DNA of 64,000 bases from Candidatus Omnitrophota bacterium (GCA_028711115.1 JAQTSV010000001.1:518032-582031); one strand, 5' to 3'; counted from the first letter of the stretch, positions 7,377 through 39,600 are shown. A program made the numbers and translations. The notes: a model not told the origin generated them from the letters alone.

Positions 7377-8291
7377 ATGGAGCCAAGAAATCCAGAGACA
7401 ACAGGGAATAATATTTACCGGATAAATCCGCTAAAATATCTTGTTTTTTTATTTATAGCTATAATTTTAAGCATTTCTTTTCCTGCTCAGCTTAGGGCAG
7501 ATTGTCGTCTTTGGGCTGCAGTTTCCCGTGATAAAATACCCGAGGAAGTGACGCTGGACCAGCTTTTAAGGGCGCCCCGTTCTTTAAAAGTCTTGGGAGC
7601 ATTTAATAGGGACGGCTGGGGAATCGGATATTATCTTGGCAAAGACGCATTGCTTATAAAAGGAATGCTCTCTGCGGATAAGGATGAGAAATATAATCAA
7701 GCGGTAATAAAGGTAGCCCATCTTGAGCCCAAGATTATTGTGGCGCATGTAAGAATAGCAGTTTCCGGATGCAGGAACAATGCGGTGAATCCGCATCCTT
7801 TCACGAGAGATAAGGGCGGCAAGCATTGGCTTTTCGGTCACAACGGTATCGTCGGCAAAGCAAAACTAATTGATCTTATCGGAGACAAATATTTAAAGGC
7901 CAATCCTCCCAATACTTGCACTTATGATCCGCCGGATTCTTGGGTGGGTTCTGAACTGTATTTCATTTTCTTGCTTAAATGTATCGAAGAAAGCAACTGG
8001 GATGTGGAGAAAGGTATAAAAAAAGCTATTTCTATATTGGAATCTGTGGTACGCAAGGGCAATTTAGGGTTCAATTTCTTTCTCACAGACGGCGAGACGA
8101 TTTGGGCTTTTCGTAAAGGGCGCTCGCTTTATTATTACTATCAGTCGTCTCCTCAATATTCAGTGGTGGCGTCAGAATGCCCCTATGCTGATAAGGGGAA
8201 ATGGACAGAGGTTCCCGAGGGGTCTTTGGTTATAATGAAACCAGGAGCCCCTGTAGTTTTGAAATCGATCTCTGCGCCCGTAGCTCAATAG
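7377..8291 (+). CDS. Class II (Ntn-type) glutamine amidotransferase-like protein with an N-terminal signal/anchor
   Basis: Hydrophobic segment YLVFLFIAIILSISFPAQLRA is followed directly by CRLWAAVS, the position of the nucleophilic Cys in class II GATases. HNG motif (FGHNGIV). The last 18 nt overlap tRNA-Arg. Confidence 0.5.
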   Translation: MEPRNPETTGNNIYRINPLKYLVFLFIAIILSISFPAQLRADCRLWAAVSRDKIPEEVTLDQLLRAPRSLKVLGAFNRDGWGIGYYLGKDALLIKGMLSADKDEKYNQAVIKVAHLEPKIIVAHVRIAVSGCRNNAVNPHPFTRDKGGKHWLFGHNGIVGKAKLIDLIGDKYLKANPPNTCTYDPPDSWVGSELYFIFLLKCIEESNWDVEKGIKKAISILESVVRKGNLGFNFFLTDGETIWAFRKGRSLYYYYQSSPQYSVVASECPYADKGKWTEVPEGSLVIMKPGAPVVLKSISAPVAQ

Positions 8292-29946: not shown

Positions 29947-30036
29947 GAGCCTCAAATAAGTTAAACCCGTAAATCCGCTACGGGTTTTTTATTTGCTTAA
30001 GCTGTGTGGGAATAAACTGTCCCCTTGCCGAATATT
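29947..30036 (+). repeat. Copy 2 of the roughly 90-nt structured intergenic repeat
   Basis: See 10588-10679. Hairpin AAACCCGTA-aatccgc-TACGGGTTT + T6, then GGGA-ataaactg-TCCC. Confidence 0.6.
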
Positions 30037-30124
30037 TCTGTCCTTATTTAATGGAGATACCTCTTGAGATATTAATTGAAAGTAGTATAATATTATCATA
30101 AAGAAATAAAAGTTAATAAGCGGT

Positions 30125-30208
30125 CTGGAAATGCGAGAGTATTTCCGGAGGGTTATTTAGATGGTCGGGCCGCCATCTTGCATGTGAATGTGAGATGACG
30201 GTTTTTTT
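30125..30208 (+). promoter_or_regulatory. Riboswitch-like attenuator, copy A (5' hairpin, conserved GATGG-TCGGGCCG-CCATC hairpin, overlapping terminator)
   Basis: CTGGAAAT/ATTTCCGG hairpin, then AGATGG-TCGGGCCG-CCATCT. The competing terminator is CCGCCATCT..AGATGACGG + T7. Lies immediately upstream of the MscS RBS. Confidence 0.5.
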
Positions 30209-30224: not shown

Positions 30225-31277
30225 ATGAATATTTTTTCGGTGTCTTCTTTTCAATATTTATTTGAAATCTTGATTCCCGCTTCAATATTACTAATAACCC
30301 TAATCTTCGGGTTTATTATAAGAAAGATTATTTTTGCCCGGCTTAACCGTTGGTCAAGACATACCAAAACCCAGGTCGACGATATTATTATAGATTCAAT
30401 AAAAGGGCCGTTCATAATCTGGTTTTTGATGCTGGGTATTTATTTTGCCCTTGAATATTCAAAACTTCCGGAAAATTTAGTTCATATAATTGACAAATTC
30501 TTGCTTGTATTGGGTATTTTTTCTATTACCTTTGTTTTGGCCAATATCTCGGCTAAATTGATTAGTGTATATTCCCGTAAAGTTGAAACTGCCCTGCCGG
30601 TTACTTCGCTTACCCAAAACATCAGTCGCATAATTATATTTACGATTGGAATCTTGGTAGTCCTCCATAGCTTAGGGGTTTCTATAACACCAATCTTGGC
30701 TACTTTGGGAGTAGGCGGTTTGGCAGTGGCATTGGCTCTGCAAGATACTCTTTCAAATCTTTTTTCCGGATTTTATATTATCGTATCCAAACAAATTAAA
30801 ATAGGTGACTATATAAAATTGGATTCAGGGGAAGAGGGATATGTTACGGATATTACCTGGCGCACAACCAAGATAAAAATGCTGCCTAATAATGTCGTTT
30901 TGGTTCCCAATGAGAAGCTAACCAAAGCTATAGTGACCAACTATTATCTTCCGGATAAAGAGATGGCGGTTTTAGTCAATTTAGGGGTTCACTACAAAAG
31001 CGATTTAAAGAAAGTAGAAAAAATTACCTGTGAAGTTGCCCGGGAGGTAATGAAGGAAGTTCTGGGAGGAGTGCCGGAATTCGAGCCGTTTATACGTTAC
31101 GGCAGCTTTGCAGATTCCAGCGTTAATCTTACTGTAATTTTAAGAGCCAAGGAATTTGTTGACCAGTATTTAATAAAACACGAATTCATAAAGAGGCTTC
31201 ATGAGCGTTATGCCAAAGAGGGCATTGTGATTCCTTATCCGATAAGAGCAATAAATTACGGACAAGAGAAAGAATAG
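30225..31277 (+). CDS. Small-conductance mechanosensitive channel (MscS family)
   Basis: N-terminal TM helices, then the pore/beta-domain signature LGVGGLAVALALQDTLSNLFSG..IKIGDYI. The ATG at 30225 (RBS AAGGAG) is preferred, because the track start at 30195 lies inside the terminator stem. Confidence 0.8.
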   Translation: MNIFSVSSFQYLFEILIPASILLITLIFGFIIRKIIFARLNRWSRHTKTQVDDIIIDSIKGPFIIWFLMLGIYFALEYSKLPENLVHIIDKFLLVLGIFSITFVLANISAKLISVYSRKVETALPVTSLTQNISRIIIFTIGILVVLHSLGVSITPILATLGVGGLAVALALQDTLSNLFSGFYIIVSKQIKIGDYIKLDSGEEGYVTDITWRTTKIKMLPNNVVLVPNEKLTKAIVTNYYLPDKEMAVLVNLGVHYKSDLKKVEKITCEVAREVMKEVLGGVPEFEPFIRYGSFADSSVNLTVILRAKEFVDQYLIKHEFIKRLHERYAKEGIVIPYPIRAINYGQEKE

Positions 31278-33509
31278 ATGAGACGATTACTCATATTTAT
31301 TTTGCCGATTTTAATTATCGTTGCCATTGGGTTTACGGTATTTGGCATTATGCAGATCCGTTTTACTCAGGATAAATTTATGGATGACCTTCAAAGGAAA
31401 GCCAGGTCTGTGGCTGAGGGAATAGAGTTTTCTGCTAAGGCAATCCTTATAAATAATGACTTAAAGTCAGCAGGCCGCCTTGTGGAAACTTTTCAGAGGA
31501 GGGAAAGGCTGCAGGGATGCGTTATTTATGACAGGGAAGGCAAAGTCCTCGCGATTACCGAAAGATTTTCTGACTGGAGAGAACAGGAAAGGCCGTATCT
31601 TAAAGATATATTGGTTAACAAAACTCCACGCGGAGCATTGGAGAATTTTAAAGATTATTCGGTATATAGCTATATTATCCCTGTAAGCGATGATGAAAAT
31701 AACATTTTAGGCATGGTCGAAGTCATTTATGATACTTCTTATGTCCTTACAACTATGGCTGATCTTTGGAAGCGCTTAAGCATATCCTTGATATCCCTGC
31801 TGGTCTTTATAGTACTGATTATGCTTTTAATCCAAAGGCAGATTTTTGTTCTGCCTGTACGCAGACTCACTCAGTGGTTTACTCATTTTCAAAAAGGAGA
31901 AATCGAAAAGTTAAAACCTTTTGAAGAAAAGGGCGAGTTCGGAAAGCTGGTAAGCGAGGTCGAACAGGTCGCCTTGGGCTTAAGGGTTGCGCGCAAGGTT
32001 GTTACCGAAGAAGCGCACGTTCGTATTAAAGAGGAATTATGGACAGAAAATAAGCTAAGGGATCTCATTCACACTAAATTAGGAGAAAATGCCTTCTTTG
32101 TGGTTTCGAACCGAGAGCCTTATATGCATGTTCTAGATGATATAACAGGTGCGCCTAAATGCATCCGGCCGGCAAGCGGCGTTGTTACCGCAATAGACCC
32201 AATACTGCGCGCCTGCGGTGGAACGTGGATTGCACATGGAAGCGCCAATGCGGATAAAAAGTTTGTGAATTCCAAGAATAAGCTCGGCGTACCGCCAGAA
32301 GATAATCGCTATATCCTAAAGAGGGTATGGCTGACCAAAGAAGAAGAAGATGGATATTACTATGGTTTTGCCAATGAAGGGTTATGGCCGCTTTGCCATG
32401 TTACGCATACCCGGCCGATATTCCGGGAAACTGACTGGCAGATGTATAAAAAAGTTAATCAGAAATTTGCCGATAGTGTTTTAGAAGAGCTTCCGGCAAA
32501 GAATCCGTTTATTTTTATTCAAGACTATCATTTTACATTGCTTGCCCAGATGATTAAGGAAAAGAGACCGGATGCAACAATAGCTTTATTTTGGCATATT
32601 CCCTGGCCTAATCCGGAGGTTTTCGCGATTTGCCCTTATCAGCAGGAGATTCTTGATGGAATGCTGGCTTGCGATTTAATTGGATTTCATGTGCAAGTCC
32701 ATTGCAATAACTTTTTGGATACTGCAAACAGGCTGATTGAATGCCGCGTTGATACCGAAAAGTTCAGCGTCGTCAGGGCAAATAAGGAAACATTTATCAG
32801 GGCTTTCCCGATTAGCGTTGACGGATATATGAGCGCTGATTCGGTCAAAGCTGAATTCGGTCAAATAGATAAAATCCGCCAAGAATTTCAATTGCAGGAT
32901 AAGCTGGTTGCGGTGGGAGTAGATAGGATTGATTATACCAAAGGCATAATTGAAAGGATACTTGCTATCGATAGATTTCTGGAGAAATACCCGGAATATA
33001 AAAACAAATTTGTATTTATTCAACTAGCTGCTCCGAGTAGGACTCATATTAAGCGGTACCATGAGCTTATAGGAGAAATTGATGAGCTGGTGGAAAAAAA
33101 GAACTGGAAATATTTGGATGGAGACTGGAAGCCGATAATTTACCTAAAAAGGCATTTTTCACCGGAAGATATAAAGCCGTATTATTTGCTTGCGGATCTT
33201 TGTATTGTAAGCTCTTTGCACGATGGAATGAATCTAGTTGCAAAAGAATATGTAGCATCAAAAACTGATTTAAGCGGCAGTTTGATTTTAAGTCGTTTTA
33301 CCGGGGCTGCTAGGGAATTGACGGATGCGGTTCAGATAAATCCCTATTCAATAGAAGAATTTGCTGATGCAATAAAACTTGCTATTGAAATGCCCCCTGC
33401 GGAAAAAAGAAAACGCATGGTAAATATGCGAAAGATTGTTTCCGAAAACAATATTTATCGTTGGGCAGGCAATATTATTACGGAATTGACCGCGCTAAAA
33501 AAAGTTTAG
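31278..33509 (+). CDS. otsA: Trehalose-6-phosphate synthase (GT20, OtsA) with an N-terminal TM-sensor-TM-HAMP extension of about 270 aa
   Basis: GT20 core motifs are present (VVSNREPY, FANEGLWPLCH, IQDYHF, LFWHIPWP, GVDRIDYTKG, SSLHDGMNLVAKEY). The N-terminus has two TM helices and a HAMP-like linker. Confidence 0.85.
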   Translation: MRRLLIFILPILIIVAIGFTVFGIMQIRFTQDKFMDDLQRKARSVAEGIEFSAKAILINNDLKSAGRLVETFQRRERLQGCVIYDREGKVLAITERFSDWREQERPYLKDILVNKTPRGALENFKDYSVYSYIIPVSDDENNILGMVEVIYDTSYVLTTMADLWKRLSISLISLLVFIVLIMLLIQRQIFVLPVRRLTQWFTHFQKGEIEKLKPFEEKGEFGKLVSEVEQVALGLRVARKVVTEEAHVRIKEELWTENKLRDLIHTKLGENAFFVVSNREPYMHVLDDITGAPKCIRPASGVVTAIDPILRACGGTWIAHGSANADKKFVNSKNKLGVPPEDNRYILKRVWLTKEEEDGYYYGFANEGLWPLCHVTHTRPIFRETDWQMYKKVNQKFADSVLEELPAKNPFIFIQDYHFTLLAQMIKEKRPDATIALFWHIPWPNPEVFAICPYQQEILDGMLACDLIGFHVQVHCNNFLDTANRLIECRVDTEKFSVVRANKETFIRAFPISVDGYMSADSVKAEFGQIDKIRQEFQLQDKLVAVGVDRIDYTKGIIERILAIDRFLEKYPEYKNKFVFIQLAAPSRTHIKRYHELIGEIDELVEKKNWKYLDGDWKPIIYLKRHFSPEDIKPYYLLADLCIVSSLHDGMNLVAKEYVASKTDLSGSLILSRFTGAARELTDAVQINPYSIEEFADAIKLAIEMPPAEKRKRMVNMRKIVSENNIYRWAGNIITELTALKKV

Positions 33510-33527
33510 AATCTAAGGAGTGAAAAT

Positions 33528-33998
33528 ATGCAGGTAAAAGAGGTGATGTCAAAAGAAGTAATTACCGTAAAACGCTCCACGACTCTAAAGCGGCTGTTGG
33601 AGATATTTGCTAAGTTTCATATATTTCCTTTGGTGCCTGTGATCGGAGAGGATAATCTTCTTATAGGCATTGTTTCTTTCCGTAATCTCGTTAATGTATT
33701 CCAGTTGCGTCAGCCAGAAATACTGAAAGCCGTACCTTTTTTGGATGAGGGAGAGGAAGACATATTCAAAGTAGAGTTTACTGAAGAGATAGGTAGCTTA
33801 GTGGTGGCTGAAGATATTATGGAAAATAAGTTTATCACTATACAAGAAGACGCTTCTTTAGAAGAGGCCTATAAACTGATGAAGTTGCACCTTAAAGAAG
33901 AATTTCCTGTGGTTGATAGATTCGGAAAATTAGCAGGAATGATTGGTATATTTGATATCATCCGGTATGTTTTTCGTCACAGAGGCGTTATTAAATGA
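33528..33998 (+). CDS. CBS-pair domain protein
   Basis: Two CBS-like units (VKEVMSKEVITV...PLVPVIGEDNLLIGIVS and AEDIMENKFITIQ...FPVVDRFGKLAGMIG). Confidence 0.75.
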   Translation: MQVKEVMSKEVITVKRSTTLKRLLEIFAKFHIFPLVPVIGEDNLLIGIVSFRNLVNVFQLRQPEILKAVPFLDEGEEDIFKVEFTEEIGSLVVAEDIMENKFITIQEDASLEEAYKLMKLHLKEEFPVVDRFGKLAGMIGIFDIIRYVFRHRGVIK

Positions 33999-35188
33999 AT
34001 ACAATCTTAGGACTCGGTTTTATTCTGCTTATAGGTTTATTTTCAGCCCGACTGATAAACAAAATCAAGTTTCCCGCAGTAACCGCCTATCTTTTATCGG
34101 GCATTCTTATTGGGCCATCGGTTTTTAAACTCATTCCGAATGATGTTATAAGTGCTTCAGGTTTAATTTCCAATATAGTCTTAGGCATAATTGCCTTTGG
34201 CATAGGTCAGAATTTTTCCAGAGATAACTTCCGCAAGATCGGCAGATCAGTTATTTGGATTTCGGTCCTAGAGGCTTGTGGTGCCTGGATTTTTGTTACT
34301 TTAGTATTTTTAATTATCTTAAGGCAGCCTTTTTATCTTTCTCTTTTATTTGGAGCACTTTCCTCAGCTACTGCCCCCGCAGCAACCGTAATGGTTATTA
34401 GGGAATACCGCGCCAAAGGAAATTTTACCGATACACTTTTAGGCGTAGTTGCGATTGACGATGCCTGGTGTCTTATCATATTTGCAATTTCATTGGCAAT
34501 ATCGCAGGCCATATATGCGCATATGTTAGCCACCTTTTTCTTGATAAAAGTATTTTTAAATTCCATCTTAAGTATATTTGGCGCCTTTATTTTAGGAGGC
34601 ATTGTAGCGACGTTGTTGGCTTATCTTTCTCGATACCTGCGCACGCAGACAGAGCTCTTAATTTTTACTCTGGGATTCGTTTTTTTGAATATAGGGATTG
34701 CTATCTGGTTGAATCTATCAGTGCTTTTAGCAAATATGTTTTTGGGAGCGACGTTAGTTAATATTAATAAATCTTCGTTTAATTTCTTCGATAGCATAAA
34801 AACACTTGATCCACCGCTGTTTCTACTTTTCTTTGTTTTAGCAGGAGCAAATTTAGAGATAAGTATTCTGGGTAAATTAGGCTTAATTGGTTTGGTATAT
34901 CTTATTTTTAGAGTTATGGGGAAGATGATAGGTGCTGGTATCGGTGCTCGTATTTCGGGCGCCTCCAGAAGTATAAAGAGGTATTTAGGATTGGGTTTAG
35001 TGCCTCAGGCCGGAGTTGCATTGGGTTGCGCCCTCATTGCCAAAAATGATTTTCCCAACGTAGGAAGCATGATTTTTACCACTATTATTGCCACCACAGT
35101 TATTTATGAATTGATCGGCCCCTTGTGCACAAAATATGCGTTACAGAAAGCAGGAGAGATACTTATTGAGCCTCCCAAAAATATATGA
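33995..35188 (+). CDS. Cation:proton antiporter (CPA/Na+-H+ exchanger family membrane domain)
   Basis: About 11-12 TM segments. N-terminus (GLGFILLIGLFSARLINKIKFPAVTAYLLSGILIGP) is typical of KefB/NapA-type exchangers. 4-nt overlap with the CBS gene. Confidence 0.7.
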   Translation: MNTILGLGFILLIGLFSARLINKIKFPAVTAYLLSGILIGPSVFKLIPNDVISASGLISNIVLGIIAFGIGQNFSRDNFRKIGRSVIWISVLEACGAWIFVTLVFLIILRQPFYLSLLFGALSSATAPAATVMVIREYRAKGNFTDTLLGVVAIDDAWCLIIFAISLAISQAIYAHMLATFFLIKVFLNSILSIFGAFILGGIVATLLAYLSRYLRTQTELLIFTLGFVFLNIGIAIWLNLSVLLANMFLGATLVNINKSSFNFFDSIKTLDPPLFLLFFVLAGANLEISILGKLGLIGLVYLIFRVMGKMIGAGIGARISGASRSIKRYLGLGLVPQAGVALGCALIAKNDFPNVGSMIFTTIIATTVIYELIGPLCTKYALQKAGEILIEPPKNI

Positions 35189-35973
35189 AAAATCTTTTTA
35201 GGCACTGGGATAATTTGGAAAAAGAGTTAAGCAATAAGTATATTATGCTATTTTTAGATTATGATGGTACCTTGACTCCTATTGTTAGTACGCCAGAAAA
35301 GGCATTTATTTCGCGAGAAGTAAAGGAATTGCTGATCGGATTATCAAAAAGCCCCAAGTGCAAATTAGCCATTATTAGCGGCCGGGCCTTAAAAGATATT
35401 AAGAATATTATAGGATTAAAGAATATTATTTATTCCGGAAATCATGGATTAGAAATAGAAGGGCCAAAGATTAAGTTTGAACCTTTGGTTTCTCCAAAAT
35501 ACAGGATGATTTTAAGGCACATAAAAAACAATTTGCAGCAAAAAATATCTTATATCCGGGGAGCCTTTGTAGAAGATAAAGGGTTTTCTTTGAGCCTACA
35601 TTATCGCTTGGTAGATAAAAAACAGATTCCGCAAATTAAAACAATCTTTCATGAAACAGTAATTTCATATCTTGTGTGCAATAAAATAAAGATTAAACCC
35701 GGGAAAATGGTTTTAGAAATCAGGCCTCCTATAAAATGGGATAAGGGCAGGGTGGTCTTATGGCTTTTGACAAGACAGATTTTCGCTGCCCAAAAAGGTA
35801 TGGTCTTTCCGATTTATATAGGGGATGACGCTACCGATGAAGACGCATTTAAGGCATTAAAGAATAAAGGGTTGACTATATTTGTGGGCAAGCCCAAAGA
35901 ATCTTACGCACAATACTATTTAAAGAATCCGAAGGAAGTAGTTGGTTTCTTAAGAAGAATATCAGAAATATAA
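35185..35973 (+). CDS. otsB: Trehalose-6-phosphate phosphatase (HAD family)
   Basis: LFLDYDGTL (DxDGT nucleophile motif), ISGR and YIGDDATDEDAF. Confidence 0.85.
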   Translation: MKNLFRHWDNLEKELSNKYIMLFLDYDGTLTPIVSTPEKAFISREVKELLIGLSKSPKCKLAIISGRALKDIKNIIGLKNIIYSGNHGLEIEGPKIKFEPLVSPKYRMILRHIKNNLQQKISYIRGAFVEDKGFSLSLHYRLVDKKQIPQIKTIFHETVISYLVCNKIKIKPGKMVLEIRPPIKWDKGRVVLWLLTRQIFAAQKGMVFPIYIGDDATDEDAFKALKNKGLTIFVGKPKESYAQYYLKNPKEVVGFLRRISEI

Positions 35974-35980
35974 ACGAGAT

Positions 35981-36652
35981 ATGCCCGAATTAATAAAAGC
36001 AAAAGAGCCGTTTAAGTTTTGCACGAGATTACACTTATCAGAGTTGACCGGATTGCGAGCCACCAACTTGGGCCAGCTTTTGGCTCTTATCAAGGAAGTG
36101 TCCGGTTCATGCATTTATCACCATACCCATAGATTCCTGCAACAGCACCAGTTCCTTTCTCCGGAGCCCCCTAATGACTTTGCTTACTGGGTAACGGATA
36201 CTCTGGGAGAAGATGAGCTTGGGGAAAGGCTGGTTAGTATTGATACAATTCAATATTCAACTATCCGGGATTTGCGCGAAGAGATTGCCTTAACCATTGA
36301 AAACTATCTGAATGATAACCCATTGGCCAAATTGAAATTTGCCAAATCAGGGGAAGAGTTTCATTTTATTAAGTCAGTAAGTTTTATTCTGCCGACAAAC
36401 TATATTGTTTATGATTTAAAGGAGTTTGTGGAGATTCTAAAGAAAATCACCATTGATTCTATTTATTTTCATATTTTTGAAGCGCGCTTAAGGCTTGAGA
36501 AGCCGACTAATGACTTTTCATTTTGGATAGAAAACTCTTTAGGCGATAAAGAATTGGCGCATAAGATTTCCGGTTTTGATCCCTATACCCTCACATTAGA
36601 GGATTTAAGAAATAAAATTATACAAATAGTTGAAAGAAGGATAGCTGGCTAG
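35981..36652 (+). CDS. Uncharacterised protein made of two homologous halves
   Basis: Half 1 reads F.F...HLSELTG..A.NL.QLL.LIKEV...SIYHH...FL......P.NDFAYWV.DTLGEDELGE.L. It repeats as FHF...ILPT.Y.V.DLKEFVEILKKI...SIYFH.FE..L....PTNDFSFWIENSLGDKELA.KI. Confidence 0.4.
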   Translation: MPELIKAKEPFKFCTRLHLSELTGLRATNLGQLLALIKEVSGSCIYHHTHRFLQQHQFLSPEPPNDFAYWVTDTLGEDELGERLVSIDTIQYSTIRDLREEIALTIENYLNDNPLAKLKFAKSGEEFHFIKSVSFILPTNYIVYDLKEFVEILKKITIDSIYFHIFEARLRLEKPTNDFSFWIENSLGDKELAHKISGFDPYTLTLEDLRNKIIQIVERRIAG

Positions 36653-37867
36653 ATGGCAAGAATAGAAGAATATATCCCTTTGGTAGGGCAGGCTGTTATT
36701 GACGATTTGAGATTGCTCGGCGAGCGGTTAAAGGGCAAGGTCATCCAGCATATAAATTCTACCCCTGTGGGTGGCGGAGTCGCCGAGATATTAAACCGCA
36801 TGATTCCCTTATTGAGAGAATTGGGTGTGGATACAAAATGGGATGTTATAAAAGGCGGAGAGCAATTTTTTGATGTGACAAAGAAGTTCCATAATGCCCT
36901 GCATGGCAGAGCTGAAGAGATAACTCAAAGGGATTTTGAAATATTTTTGGAAACAAGCCAGCAGAATATCGAAAGCGTTGATACCTGCGAAGACATAGTT
37001 TTTATCCATGATCCGCAGCCAATAGCCCTGATAAAAAAGAAATCCTCTAATAAATGGCTTTGGCGCTGTCATATTGACGTGTCTAATCCTAATGAAAGAG
37101 TTTGGGGATTTCTTAGAGATTTTATCGTTCAATACGATTCAGCAGTATTTTCTGCTCCTGTTTTCTCACGGAAGTTGCCTATTAGACAATTTTTGATTCC
37201 TCCTTCCATTGACCCTTTAAGCGATAAAAATAAAGAATTACCTCAGGAAACAATAAATTCTGTCTTGAGAAAATACGATATCAAAAAAGATAAACCAATT
37301 GTCATTCAGATATCTCGCTTTGACCGCTTGAAAGACCCAATAGGCGTAATCGAAGCATATCTACAGGTTAAAAAATATATTAATTGCCAGTTGGTTTTAG
37401 CTGGTGGCACCGCAGAGGATGATCCGGAAGGATTTAAAGTTTTAGGGGAAGTCAAAGAAAGAGCCAAGAGCGACCCTGACATCCATATTTTACTATTGCC
37501 ACAGAATGATTTGGAGGTTAACGCATTACAAAGGGCATCAGATATAATTGTTCAGAAGTCTCTCAAGGAAGGATTCGGTTTAACGGTTGCAGAGGCTTTA
37601 TGGAAAGCAAAACCTGTTGTAGCTTCAAATGTCGGGGGTATTCCTTTGCAAATAAAACATAAATATTCAGGATTGTTGTGTCATTCCGTCGAAGGAGCCA
37701 GTTTCGCCATAAAACAATTCCTAAGCAGTCCCGAATACGCCAAAAAATTAGGAGAAAATGGGCGTGAACATATAAAAAATAATTTTTTAATTACACGTCA
37801 TTTAAGAGATTATATGTTATTGTTTCTTTCTTTATATCATCCTGAAGATATTGTTCATCTGTGTTAA
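36653..37867 (+). CDS. treT: Trehalose glycosyltransferring synthase-like GT4 glycosyltransferase (TreT-like)
   Basis: The N-terminus (HINSTPVGGGVAEILNRMIPLLRELGVDTKWDVIKGGEQFFDVTKKFHNALHG) closely resembles archaeal TreT as I recall it. The GT4 C-terminal E(x7)E region is present (KEGFGLTVAEALWKAKPVV). Confidence 0.7.
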   Translation: MARIEEYIPLVGQAVIDDLRLLGERLKGKVIQHINSTPVGGGVAEILNRMIPLLRELGVDTKWDVIKGGEQFFDVTKKFHNALHGRAEEITQRDFEIFLETSQQNIESVDTCEDIVFIHDPQPIALIKKKSSNKWLWRCHIDVSNPNERVWGFLRDFIVQYDSAVFSAPVFSRKLPIRQFLIPPSIDPLSDKNKELPQETINSVLRKYDIKKDKPIVIQISRFDRLKDPIGVIEAYLQVKKYINCQLVLAGGTAEDDPEGFKVLGEVKERAKSDPDIHILLLPQNDLEVNALQRASDIIVQKSLKEGFGLTVAEALWKAKPVVASNVGGIPLQIKHKYSGLLCHSVEGASFAIKQFLSSPEYAKKLGENGREHIKNNFLITRHLRDYMLLFLSLYHPEDIVHLC

Positions 37868-37960
37868 TTTATGGTATGGAATTTTGAAAAACTAAAATCC
37901 CAGCCACTGAAATTCGTTTAAAAGTTATTGTAGATAAATTTTTTTGTTAATACAAGGGTT

Positions 37961-38035
37961 CGGAAGTTTCTTATTTCCGGAGGATTTGTGATGGTCGGGC
38001 CGCCATCTGGCTTTGTAAGCCAGGTGGCGTTTTTA
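37961..38035 (+). promoter_or_regulatory. Riboswitch-like attenuator, copy B
   Basis: CGGAAGT/ATTTCCG hairpin, then GATGG-TCGGGCCG-CCATC. The competing terminator is CGCCATCTGGCT-ttgta-AGCCAGGTGGCG + T5. Lies upstream of the first mini-ORF. Confidence 0.5.
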
Positions 38036-38053
38036 TTAATAAAGGGAGAGAGT

Positions 38054-38152
38054 ATGGATAGGACAATGTGGTTTATATTTATAATAATGGGAGTATGTAT
38101 TTTGGCGGGGATATTATGCGTAATTTTTACAATTACCCATAATATTGGATAA
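38054..38152 (+). CDS. 32-aa single-TM mini-protein
   Basis: My translation: MDRTMWFIFIIMGVCILAGILCVIFTITHNIG. RBS AAGGGAGAG. Not in the ORF track because it is under 60 aa. Confidence 0.4.
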   Translation: MDRTMWFIFIIMGVCILAGILCVIFTITHNIG

Positions 38153-38163
38153 GGAGGAGTGGA

Positions 38164-38298
38164 TTGAAACCGGGCAATTGGATACTTATGATAATTTTGT
38201 GGGCTTGTATTTTGAGCCCCCTGATTTTTTTTGTTTTAGATAAATATTTTAAGAGGAAAAGTTGGATTAATTATAAGTTTGCAAGAAGGAGAGGATAA
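38164..38298 (+). CDS. 44-aa single-TM mini-protein (TTG start)
   Basis: MKPGNWILMIILWACILSPLIFFVLDKYFKRKSWINYKFARRRG. Perfect AGGAGG lies 6 nt upstream of the TTG. Confidence 0.4.
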   Translation: MKPGNWILMIILWACILSPLIFFVLDKYFKRKSWINYKFARRRG

Positions 38299-38300
38299 AA

Positions 38301-38435
38301 ATGTTAAAGGTAGATCCCGTGAATATCTTTGTATTTATTATAGTTGTTGTCTTTCTTTCTTTCGTTATCTATGTTGCGGTTCAGGGCAGGATTGAAGAAC
38401 GAAAGGGCAAAAAGGAACAGGAAAATAAAAAGTAA
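38301..38435 (+). CDS. 44-aa single-TM mini-protein
   Basis: MLKVDPVNIFVFIIVVVFLSFVIYVAVQGRIEERKGKKEQENKK. RBS AAGGAGAGG. Starts 2 nt after the previous stop. Confidence 0.45.
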   Translation: MLKVDPVNIFVFIIVVVFLSFVIYVAVQGRIEERKGKKEQENKK

Positions 38436-38500: not shown

Positions 38501-38599
38501 ATGTCAGTAGGAATATGGCAACAATTAGGAGCATTGGTTCTTGCGGTTTTGTTCTCGCTATTATTTAATTCTATGAATAGTAGAGGATCAAGAAGATAA
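38501..38599 (+). CDS. 32-aa single-TM mini-protein
   Basis: MSVGIWQQLGALVLAVLFSLLFNSMNSRGSRR. RBS AGGAG. Confidence 0.35.
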   Translation: MSVGIWQQLGALVLAVLFSLLFNSMNSRGSRR

Positions 38600-38866: not shown

Positions 38867-38958
38867 TTGACAATTCGGGAAAACATGCTATACTTTCTAT
38901 AACAATGAAGTTTAGTTAGGCAAAGAAGCCCCAAAATAAATTTGGGGTTTTCGCATTT
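38867..38958 (+). ncRNA. Candidate short transcript: sigma70-like promoter followed about 35 nt later by an intrinsic terminator
   Basis: TTGACA (38867) - 16 nt - TATACT (38889). Terminator CCCCAAA-ataaa-TTTGGGG + TTTTCGCATTTT (38929-38958). Confidence 0.3.
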
Positions 38959-39087
38959 TAGGGACAAAGACGCCCTTTTTAGAGCAGAGAATGCTTTGAA
39001 AAGGGTTTAATTTTTTTATAGACAGAGGCGTCTTCTATCCAATGGCGGGATGAGGACGCCTTTTCTTTTTTAAAATGGCGGTAAAAT

Positions 39088-39600
39088 ATGGATTTTAAAA
39101 TATTGTTAGAGAAAATAACACCCGCGCTTAAACATATCGCACGCAAACACTTGTTCCGTGGTTTTTACAGCGAGGAAGACCTTTATCAGGAGATGTGCCT
39201 TTATCTGTGGCAACATTACGGACAAGGACTGCCCATAGGTATAAATGAGGCCTATGTAATCAAGGGATGCGAATTTCATATACAGAATTTCCTGAGAAAA
39301 GGAAGACCAAGGGTAATGCTCTCGAGCCTTGATGAGCTTATAACCCCTGAAGGGCTGACGCTGGGCGATATCCTCGAAGATAAAAAAGAGGATTTTCGTT
39401 CAGGCGTAGAAAACAAGCTTACGGTTGATGAAATAATAAATTTGGGTTTAAGCGATAGAGAGAAATCGGTACTTTTTTGCCTGCTTAAAGGACAGACGGT
39501 GCGTGAGGCAGCGAAGGAGTTGGGAGTTTCGCATGTTATGATTTTAAAGTACAAAAAGAGCATAATAAAAAAATGGCGCAAAAGAGGTTACCAAAGATAA
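39088..39600 (+). CDS. Sigma-70 family (ECF-like, regions 2 and 4) RNA polymerase sigma factor
   Basis: Region-2-like EEDLYQEMCLYLW. C-terminal HTH LSDREKSVLFCLLKGQTVREAAKELGVSHVMI. Confidence 0.65.
   Translation: MDFKILLEKITPALKHIARKHLFRGFYSEEDLYQEMCLYLWQHYGQGLPIGINEAYVIKGCEFHIQNFLRKGRPRVMLSSLDELITPEGLTLGDILEDKKEDFRSGVENKLTVDEIINLGLSDREKSVLFCLLKGQTVREAAKELGVSHVMILKYKKSIIKKWRKRGYQR

Follow-up and report, generated by a model that had tools for sequence, protein, structure and literature searches.

The nhaA-I motif was discovered in 2017 through comparative genomics (PMC5737381) and experiments published in 2022 established it as the Li+-I riboswitch; its rare terminator-bearing variants answer to Na+ and received the name Na+-II (PMC9646797; PMC9337991). 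Most Li+-I RNAs control nhaA, and the speculation of the authors is that they act through the ribosome-binding site; the motif was reported from Alpha-, Beta-, Gamma-, and Deltaproteobacteria, with terminator variants in the Deltaproteobacteria only (PMC9646797). In the Na+-selective RNA of Desulfobulbus propionicus, whose aptamer contains the hairpins P1 and P2, the 5' arm of the terminator (GGCCGCUAAC) consists of the P2 loop and the P2 3' arm; in single-round transcription, the share of full-length product increases with Na+ (dissociation constant [KD] of about 1.4 mM), mutations in the AGG or the loop abolish this effect, and a mutant in which the C at position 54 (C54) was changed to U responded to Li+, Na+, and NH4+ (PMC9646797). 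Here, we describe two RNAs of this family in a 64,000-nucleotide (nt) stretch of DNA from Candidatus Omnitrophota bacterium (GCA_028711115.1 JAQTSV010000001.1:518032-582031; termed the window herein). One of them, copy A, stands at the 5' end of a salt-stress operon, and the other, copy B, lies behind the last gene of that operon, treT, and ahead of four mini membrane-protein genes (mini-ORFs, for open reading frames). We consider it probable that copy B is a functional transcriptional ON switch of the nhaA-I family that also serves as a conditional operon terminator and gates the mini-genes through two decisions.

Two further described arrangements are close to this locus. The Na+-I riboswitch (DUF1646 motif, PMC9337991) works in a similar manner: its aptamer likewise has two hairpins, most often joined by a terminator, Na+ switches it ON, and it controls genes for Na+ transport and osmolytes. 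It belongs, however, to a separate Rfam family, whose consensus for the P1 base and for the P2 loop is not that of nhaA-I, and cmscan reported nhaA-I alone, and not DUF1646, at the two window sites. Tandem Li+-I aptamers are known as six doublets and one triplet, and according to the same review, Na+-II has never been found in tandem (PMC9481103). As in a tandem (pseudo-cooperative) arrangement, the two aptamers of one class in the window may act in series on one transcript, so that distal expression would need two ON decisions; unlike in a tandem, the two complete switches, which are on the same strand, are about 7.7 to 7.8 kb apart with seven genes between them, and they would grade the expression of an operon instead of sharpening a single decision.

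An nhaA-I family aptamer with a competing terminator

The whole window was scanned against 4227 Rfam families with curated thresholds (E values are for the entire window), and the complete yield was three tRNAs and two sites of RF03057 (nhaA-I), both on the plus strand: copy B at 37956 to 38008 (52.2 bits, E = 2e-07) and copy A at 30121 to 30178 (48.5 bits, E = 1.6e-06). Both exceed the gathering score of 37, span the full model (positions 1 to 55 of 55), and score far beyond chance; the gathering score was also exceeded by 15 related copies at other loci. Judged from its sequence, copy B thus belongs to a riboswitch class (Li+-I/Na+-II, nhaA-I) that has been described before and characterized by experiment. 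An initial annotation, made from the DNA alone, had called a riboswitch-like element at 37961 to 38035, of which the riboswitch call stands and the start is moved, since the structured element begins with GGGU at 37956. The 19-nt block that it regarded as invariant between the copies (GATGGTCGGGCCGCCATCT) occurs at exactly two sites in the window (30160 to 30178 and 37990 to 38008; 0 expected from 100 shuffles), and so does the upstream sequence it described as common to both, ATTTCCGGAGG, at 30141 and 37973 (0.06 expected).

The copy B aptamer comprises, all on the plus strand, GGGU 5' of P1 (37956 to 37959), the P1 hairpin (37960 to 37980; arms 37960 to 37967 and 37973 to 37980, loop UUCUU), a P1-P2 linker (AGGAUUUGU) that follows P1 with the conserved AGG (37981 to 37983), and the P2 hairpin (37990 to 38007; arms 37990 to 37995 and 38002 to 38007, loop 37996 to 38001) with the loop (U)CGGGCC. 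P2 was assigned from Rfam, folding, and alignment with validated aptamers, and P1 from the Rfam alignment and from its pairing in relatives; folding the aptamer in isolation gave P1 plus P2. The P1 pairing was tested on 85 distinct relatives, with GGU and AGG as the anchors and no regard to pairing: 85% of the cells pair, versus 41 to 54% with the partner slid, and pairs 3 to 8 each occur as several Watson-Crick types.

A predicted intrinsic terminator (terminator scan and folds; 38001 to 38034, plus strand) follows, with a stem formed by 38001 to 38013 and 38017 to 38029, the loop UGU, and five U's at 38030 to 38034. The initial annotation had located it correctly and counted 12 bp for a stem that has 13 pairs, one of which is G-U. 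Its folding energy is −22.1 kcal/mol (z = −6.4), compared with only −7.3 kcal/mol for the P2 hairpin alone, and at its minimum free energy (MFE) the full leader folds into P1 and the terminator. Because the terminator 5' arm (38001 to 38013) includes the entire P2 3' arm (38002 to 38007), P2 and the terminator are mutually exclusive, as the annotation had maintained for its conserved hairpin; the RF03057 match and the same layout in the validated D. propionicus RNA (PMC9646797) bear out its idea of a riboswitch with a competing terminator.

To place this platform among its relatives, GTDB representative genomes were scanned with the pattern GGAGG-N5-14-UGGUCGGGCCGCCA, which gave at least 120 loci. 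Among the matches listed, a good P1 is present in 83 aptamers, of which 40 carry a terminator that uses the P2 3' arm as its own 5' arm; these counts, like those from metagenomes given below, are approximate, since our own ORF and terminator detectors are crude, and two loci (L078 and L068; loci are numbered with an L herein) with visible terminators but broken U tracts were scored as having none. Terminator-type copies were found in metagenome-assembled genomes (MAGs) labelled Omnitrophota, Elusimicrobia, Nitrospirae, Planctomycetales, Spirochaetaceae/Treponemataceae, and Deltaproteobacteria.

By comparison with the validated D. propionicus RNA, copy B would work in the ON direction. In the nascent RNA, the aptamer (GGGU, P1, AGG linker, and P2) would form first; with a cation bound, P2 would be held, its 3' arm (38002 to 38007) would be unavailable for other pairing, the 13-bp terminator would be blocked, and RNA polymerase would continue into the four small membrane-protein genes. 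Without ligand, the terminator, ∼15 kcal/mol more stable than P2, would form, and transcription would stop at the U tract (38030 to 38034).

A second switch at the end of a salt-stress operon

Copy A, whose nhaA-I assignment by Rfam is joined by a fold, has a terminator and U tract of its own (30169 to 30208, plus strand; −15.7 kcal/mol, z = −5.2) that overlap the P2 3' arm in the same arrangement; as the initial annotation had seen, the two terminators differ, the distal part of this one (30169 to 30201) being unrelated in sequence to its copy B counterpart. Ahead of copy A are a promoter-like site, TTGAGA-16-TATAAT (11/12; 30064 to 30091, plus strand), and, upstream of that, a terminator (29963 to 29987). 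The seven genes between the switches (30225 to 37867, plus strand; ORFs and Pfam matches) encode MscS (30225 to 31277), an OtsA-like GT20 enzyme with an N-terminal extension (31278 to 33509), a CBS pair (33528 to 33998), a Na+/H+ exchanger (33995 to 35188), OtsB (35185 to 35973), DUF5752 (35981 to 36652), and a TreT-type trehalose synthase (36653 to 37867). This mscS-to-treT unit is a salt/osmotic-stress operon and contains no nhaA gene; the osmotic link drawn by the initial annotation fits its content (MscS, OtsA, OtsB, TreT, and the Na+/H+ exchanger). Copy A precedes it as mscS-otsA-...-Na_H_Exchanger-...-treT on the same strand, and associations of nhaA-I with mscS, otsA, and glycosyl-transferase genes have already been tabulated (PMC9646797).

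The treT stop (37867) and copy B are separated by an AT-rich spacer of 88 nt (37868 to 37955), and between the stop and copy B, a consensus scan found no terminator and no promoter-like site. The distance from the treT stop to GGAGG is 111 nt in the window and 35 to 46 nt in L024, L078, L117, L131, and L132, and in five genomes other than that of the window, the treT stop lies only ∼10 to 20 nt before the aptamer. These findings suggest that copy B is fed by read-through from the upstream operon and not by its own promoter. That copy B instead heads an independent unit with its own promoter, its place after treT reflecting nothing but tight gene packing, is in our view doubtful. A −10-like sequence, TGnTAATAC, is present in the spacer (37945 to 37953), and a sigma-70 consensus scan could miss promoters of Omnitrophota, which are themselves uncharacterized; however, a start from this site would fall at about 37958 to 37962, inside the conserved GGGU, the short spacing in the five other genomes leaves no room for an intergenic promoter, no terminator closes the upstream operon before copy B, and in L129/L130 the mini-ORFs are fused directly to the operon. 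With read-through as its supply, copy B would probably act as a conditional terminator for the operon under copy A control. One ON decision would then be needed for the trehalose, MscS, and antiporter genes and two for the mini-protein genes, which would give the latter a steeper or higher-threshold response.

The layout with one switch before the operon and another behind treT was found, with Rfam or pattern confirmation, in the window, L104 plus L078 (one contig), L117, L131, L132/L133, L135, and L136. In all seven genomes compared, A-type aptamers start with YGGU and B-type aptamers with GGGU, and the window copy B shares 87 to 89% identity with the B copies in L136 and L024, compared with 72% with its own copy A. 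By these sequence comparisons, A-type and B-type aptamers are separate orthologous lineages; the higher identity among B copies and the distinct starts indicate that the duplication is old and that both copies were maintained, which agrees with the argument of the initial annotation against a recent duplication.

One relative, L127 (GCA_964582765.1), is a natural example of riboswitch loss and has decayed versions of both switches (1640 to 1740 and 7790 to 7870). Its 5' copy, with the loop GGUUGGGCC and an AGGGG junction, is below the Rfam gathering score, and at its treT-distal site the terminator half alone survives, with homologues of mini-ORF1 and mini-ORF2 intact. Copy B could in principle be a fossil of this kind, an insensitive aptamer in front of a hairpin and U tract that constitutively terminate the trehalose operon, and its terminator is indeed strong (−22.1 kcal/mol). 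We regard this as very improbable: such decay does occur, as in L127, but the copy B aptamer is complete, outscores copy A, and has every conserved nucleotide of the family, the B-type lineage is kept in at least seven contigs, and conserved genes with ribosome-binding sites start 20 nt downstream.

Two proteins of the operon deserve a separate remark. The OtsA-type enzyme has 743 amino acids, with GT20 starting at residue 273; the N-terminal extension of 270 amino acids consists of a transmembrane helix and a domain of ∼250 amino acids without a Pfam match, and a relative has a faint dCache_1 match, which suggests a membrane-anchored, possibly signal-sensing trehalose-6-phosphate synthase. 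DUF5752 (223 amino acids; 35981 to 36652) is flanked by otsB and treT in all related operons examined and is probably a trehalose-pathway accessory protein; a literature search on DUF5752 or on trehalose in Omnitrophota found nothing.

The family also stands before other genes elsewhere. In deltaproteobacterial MAGs, terminator-type aptamers precede secreted or lipid-anchored proteins with motifs like pentapeptide repeats (...CDLSGANLSGANL...; L048, L056, L068, L083, L114, L115, and L193), which have no obvious link to cations. A membrane protein of ∼110 to 125 amino acids (GCLxRLxWMxxGN) is encoded by the first gene behind many nonterminator nhaA-I aptamers in metagenomes and MAGs (L187, L201, L215, L232, L233, L241, L248, L161, L174, L179, L196, L073, and L111).

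Four mini membrane-protein genes behind copy B

Four short ORFs of 32, 44, 44, and 32 amino acids follow copy B on the plus strand, each with a Shine-Dalgarno sequence and one hydrophobic helix; of the four, the source assembly annotates mini-ORF3 alone. Mini-ORF1 (38054 to 38152, a start corrected from the initial annotation; Shine-Dalgarno sequence GGGAGAGAG at 38044 to 38052) encodes a single-pass protein of family a (MDRTMWFIFIIMGVCILAGILCVIFTITHNIG) and shares 74% identity with the ORF that comes first after the riboswitch in L024, an Omnitrophica MAG; it differs from that ORF at 7, 2, and 12 first, second, and third codon positions, respectively; further homologues are in L078, L002 (Nitrospirae), L127, L117, and L135. 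Mini-ORF2 (38164 to 38298; Shine-Dalgarno sequence AAGGAGGAG at 38151 to 38159) has a TTG start that is kept in L024 and L112 and encodes a single-pass protein of family b (motif GWIxMIIxW), for which a profile search returned 59 database clusters of 32 to 75 amino acids with E values down to 4e-21; between L112 and L024, the differences by codon position are 3/3/12, with 12 synonymous and 4 nonsynonymous codons. The protein of mini-ORF3 (38301 to 38435), single pass and with a K/E-rich tail, is a divergent member of family d (NLAQxWPxY...NSR; 46 database clusters), with a cross-genome identity of 48% over 25 residues. Mini-ORF4 (38501 to 38599), of the single-pass family c (I-x-QQLG..VLAVLFSLLF), is 65% identical to a mini-ORF of the same operon in L122 and has homologues in L024 and L112.

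Cross-genome identity is thus 65 to 74% for mini-ORF1, mini-ORF4, and the N-terminal half of mini-ORF2, and orthologues differ above all at third codon positions, the signature of coding sequence. On this comparative evidence, all four mini-ORFs are real genes, representing four single-pass membrane families kept in other Omnitrophota MAGs; the four mini membrane-protein genes proposed by the initial annotation have homologues behind the same riboswitch or in the same operon elsewhere. It is hardly credible that they are instead chance ORFs or attenuator leader peptides, with the switch controlling a noncoding RNA. Only one of the four was called in the source assembly, and none has a Pfam or NCBIfam match, but the identities, the third-position excess, the ratio of synonymous to nonsynonymous changes, the Shine-Dalgarno sequence before each ORF, and the numbers of database clusters in families b and d all speak against it.

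Searches of Pfam and NCBIfam at E values of up to 10 returned nothing for mini-ORF1, mini-ORF2, and mini-ORF4 and, for mini-ORF3, only subthreshold low-complexity or transmembrane matches, such as oadG_fam (E = 0.042; cutoff, 36 bits). CydX, KdpF, CcmD, and OadG, considered for a resemblance to the mini-proteins, found no support and were rejected. The JGI name “choline-glycine betaine transporter” for mini-ORF2 homologues of 43 to 52 amino acids (P0009, P0015, P0017, P0019, P0024, and P0031) was likewise discarded as an annotation artifact, as the match to BCCT has 12 bits (E = 0.056) with a cutoff of 27 bits. Gene callers also extend mini-ORFs into the aptamer: database protein P0001 begins with MVGPPS..., which is the translated P2 hairpin, and its window counterpart is a 54-amino-acid ORF with a GTG start (37988 to 38152). 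Such overextension may hide riboswitches and missize small proteins in MAG annotations.

Look-ups that started from the mini-protein sequences, and not from the RNA, always led into or directly behind an otsA-(mscS)-otsB-DUF5752-treT cluster. In other genomes, the relatives of the mini-ORFs are followed by CitMHS/ArsB-type or Na/Ca-exchanger genes, in most cases by a CitMHS/ArsB-type permease of 423 amino acids; a tblastn search found no such permease downstream in the window (best E = 0.62). In the automatic ORF screen, the first gene was a complete hydrophobic ORF of ≤60 amino acids for 9 of the 40 terminator-type aptamers among the listed genome matches; by eye, L078 and the second copy of L117 also precede a mini-ORF, and they are outside this count on account of a missed terminator call and the end of the locus. 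KdpF and MgtS are small membrane proteins that accompany ion transporters. The mini-proteins resemble this type in that they are single pass, have 28 to 52 amino acids, and are encoded in relatives beside Na+-coupled transporters (a CitMHS/ArsB-type permease, a Na/Pi cotransporter, and a Na/Ca exchanger); they differ in that they have no similarity to any curated family and in that no transporter follows them in the window. From this context, they might function as salt-stress effectors.

Another small family without a Pfam match (62 to 65 amino acids, two transmembrane helices; ...KWSxxxFxxxxVxxF...RPxYxFWxKx) occurs in the same operons of some relatives (L122, 3082 to 3270; L002, downstream of the riboswitch). 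Further downstream in the window, a strong promoter-like site, TTGACA-16-TATACT with TG (38867 to 38894), is followed by a leader of 190 nt (region 38867 to 39087) before a GerE/LuxR-type gene of 170 amino acids (39088 to 39600). Folding of this leader gave a stack of three terminator-like hairpins (MFE, −67.7 kcal/mol; z = −6.1), Rfam has only subthreshold matches to it (BTnc201, 30 bits; PyrR site, 27.5 bits), and it may be an uncharacterized cis-regulatory leader.

Ligand of copy B and meaning of the two-switch layout

In its GGGU, P1, GGAGG junction, and P2 loop CGGGCC, in the overlap of its terminator 5' arm with the P2 3' arm, in the expected ON direction, and in its place upstream of “hypothetical” genes, here mini-ORFs without a family match, copy B resembles the Na+-II RNA of D. 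propionicus. It differs in its host, which belongs to the Omnitrophota and not the Deltaproteobacteria, in being an intraoperonic second copy, and in having U, and not C, at the counterpart of C54. In Na+-II, C54 gives GCCGGGCC instead of GUCGGGCC; both window copies have U (U37995 and U30165), within GGUCGGGCC, and so do the three validated Li+-I aptamers in the alignment. Compared by sequence, copy B is of the Na+-II type in platform and gene context and not in C54 or taxonomy. With Li+-I (RF03057), it shares a score above the gathering threshold and the identical loop GGUCGGGCC, including the U; it differs in its GGAGG junction, which is CAGG in the three validated Li+-I RNAs, in the absence of nhaA, and in being controlled by termination.

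A metagenome sample, collected with a pattern that allowed either junction (GGAGG or GCAGG) and either loop base, contained 53 genuine-looking aptamers with a copy B-type P2, none of which has C at the specificity position; two pattern matches with C both lacked GGGU and P1 and were rejected. Terminators accompany 15 of the 29 GGAGG aptamers in this sample and none of the 24 GCAGG aptamers. The junction nucleotide was nevertheless dropped as evidence for the ligand, as the two groups have downstream genes in common (NhaA, Na/H exchanger, CitMHS, and the membrane protein of 110 to 125 amino acids), and the split may reflect phylogeny or GC content.

The same switch could be a true Li+-I riboswitch that senses toxic Li+, with the operon as a lithium-defense unit. 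In line with this are the U at the specificity position in an exact Li+-I loop consensus and the remarks that otsA is occasionally associated with Li+-I and that Li+ affects eukaryotic trehalose metabolism (PMC9646797). However, the unit lacks nhaA and is a classic osmotic regulon (compatible solutes, MscS, and a Na+/H+ exchanger), and the window copies share the terminator platform together with GGAGG with the Na+-responsive D. propionicus RNA and not with the CAGG Li+-I RNAs. Other MAGs scanned whose accessions are close to that of the window are labelled “Sandtown,” and several relatives are titled “groundwater,” settings that are presumed to be low in Li+. We therefore regard Li+ as an unlikely physiological ligand of copy B. 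Na+ is the most likely trigger, because nhaA is absent, because the operon combines compatible-solute synthesis, MscS, and a Na+/H+ exchanger, and because trehalose-linked members of the family may be Na+ sensors according to the authors of the validation study (PMC9646797); on this gene context, we favor Na+ by somewhat better than an even chance, and what remains beyond the small share of Li+ is left to a broader cation response. Na+ rising in the cytoplasm during salt stress would then trigger copy B, and its aptamer may respond to Li+ or NH4+ too.

Several observations weigh against copy B as a Na+-responsive second gate. It has U at the sole position for which specificity was tested experimentally, as in Li+-I, so that strict Na+ selectivity cannot be claimed. 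The terminator always wins in thermodynamic folds, and switching depends on cotranscriptional kinetics, which for copy B are presumed. A promoter within the 3' end of treT or the spacer (37868 to 37955) could escape the consensus scan. Moreover, some relatives have no copy B: L129/L130 have only the 5' switch, with mini-ORFs directly after treT, and in L122, no riboswitch is found within 5 kb, and the mini-ORFs are flanked by genes for a Na/Pi cotransporter and for a Na/Ca exchanger. As a further variant, L134, L098, and L103 have a single switch, then a family d mini-ORF, and then otsA. The absence or decay of copy B in L129/L130, L122, and L127 indicates that the second switch is dispensable.

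The copy B RNA itself adds little to what is known, as the ligands and mechanism of the class were published in 2022. What goes beyond the published picture is the mini-protein regulon, the conserved second switch within an operon, and a specificity nucleotide that does not match its Na+-type context. Tentatively, and with slightly less than even confidence, we propose that Omnitrophota and their relatives use a two-stage cation-riboswitch cascade, in which the first nhaA-I switch would open the trehalose/MscS/antiporter operon and the second would admit polymerase to the mini-protein cluster; the mini-proteins would be new Na+-gated salt-stress effectors, and C54 would not define Na+-II. If this is true, the mini-proteins could be subunits or modulators of Na+-coupled transporters and, of all that the system expresses, would be under the strictest gating by Na+, and U-type, terminator-bearing aptamers of osmotic regulons would sense Na+.

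Among 944 tabulated nhaA-I gene associations, 171 are “hypothetical” and 185 are “no gene” (PMC9646797); mini membrane proteins, whose genes are mostly missed by gene callers or misextended into the aptamer, are the likely content of some of these entries. Two switches of the same class ∼7.7 kb apart would constitute a natural graded operon and a test case for the dose-response of serial riboswitches. Finally, the combination of U-type aptamers with Na+-II platforms and osmotic regulons outside the Proteobacteria casts doubt on a single-nucleotide rule for this family and would provide templates for discriminating Na+ from Li+ sensing.

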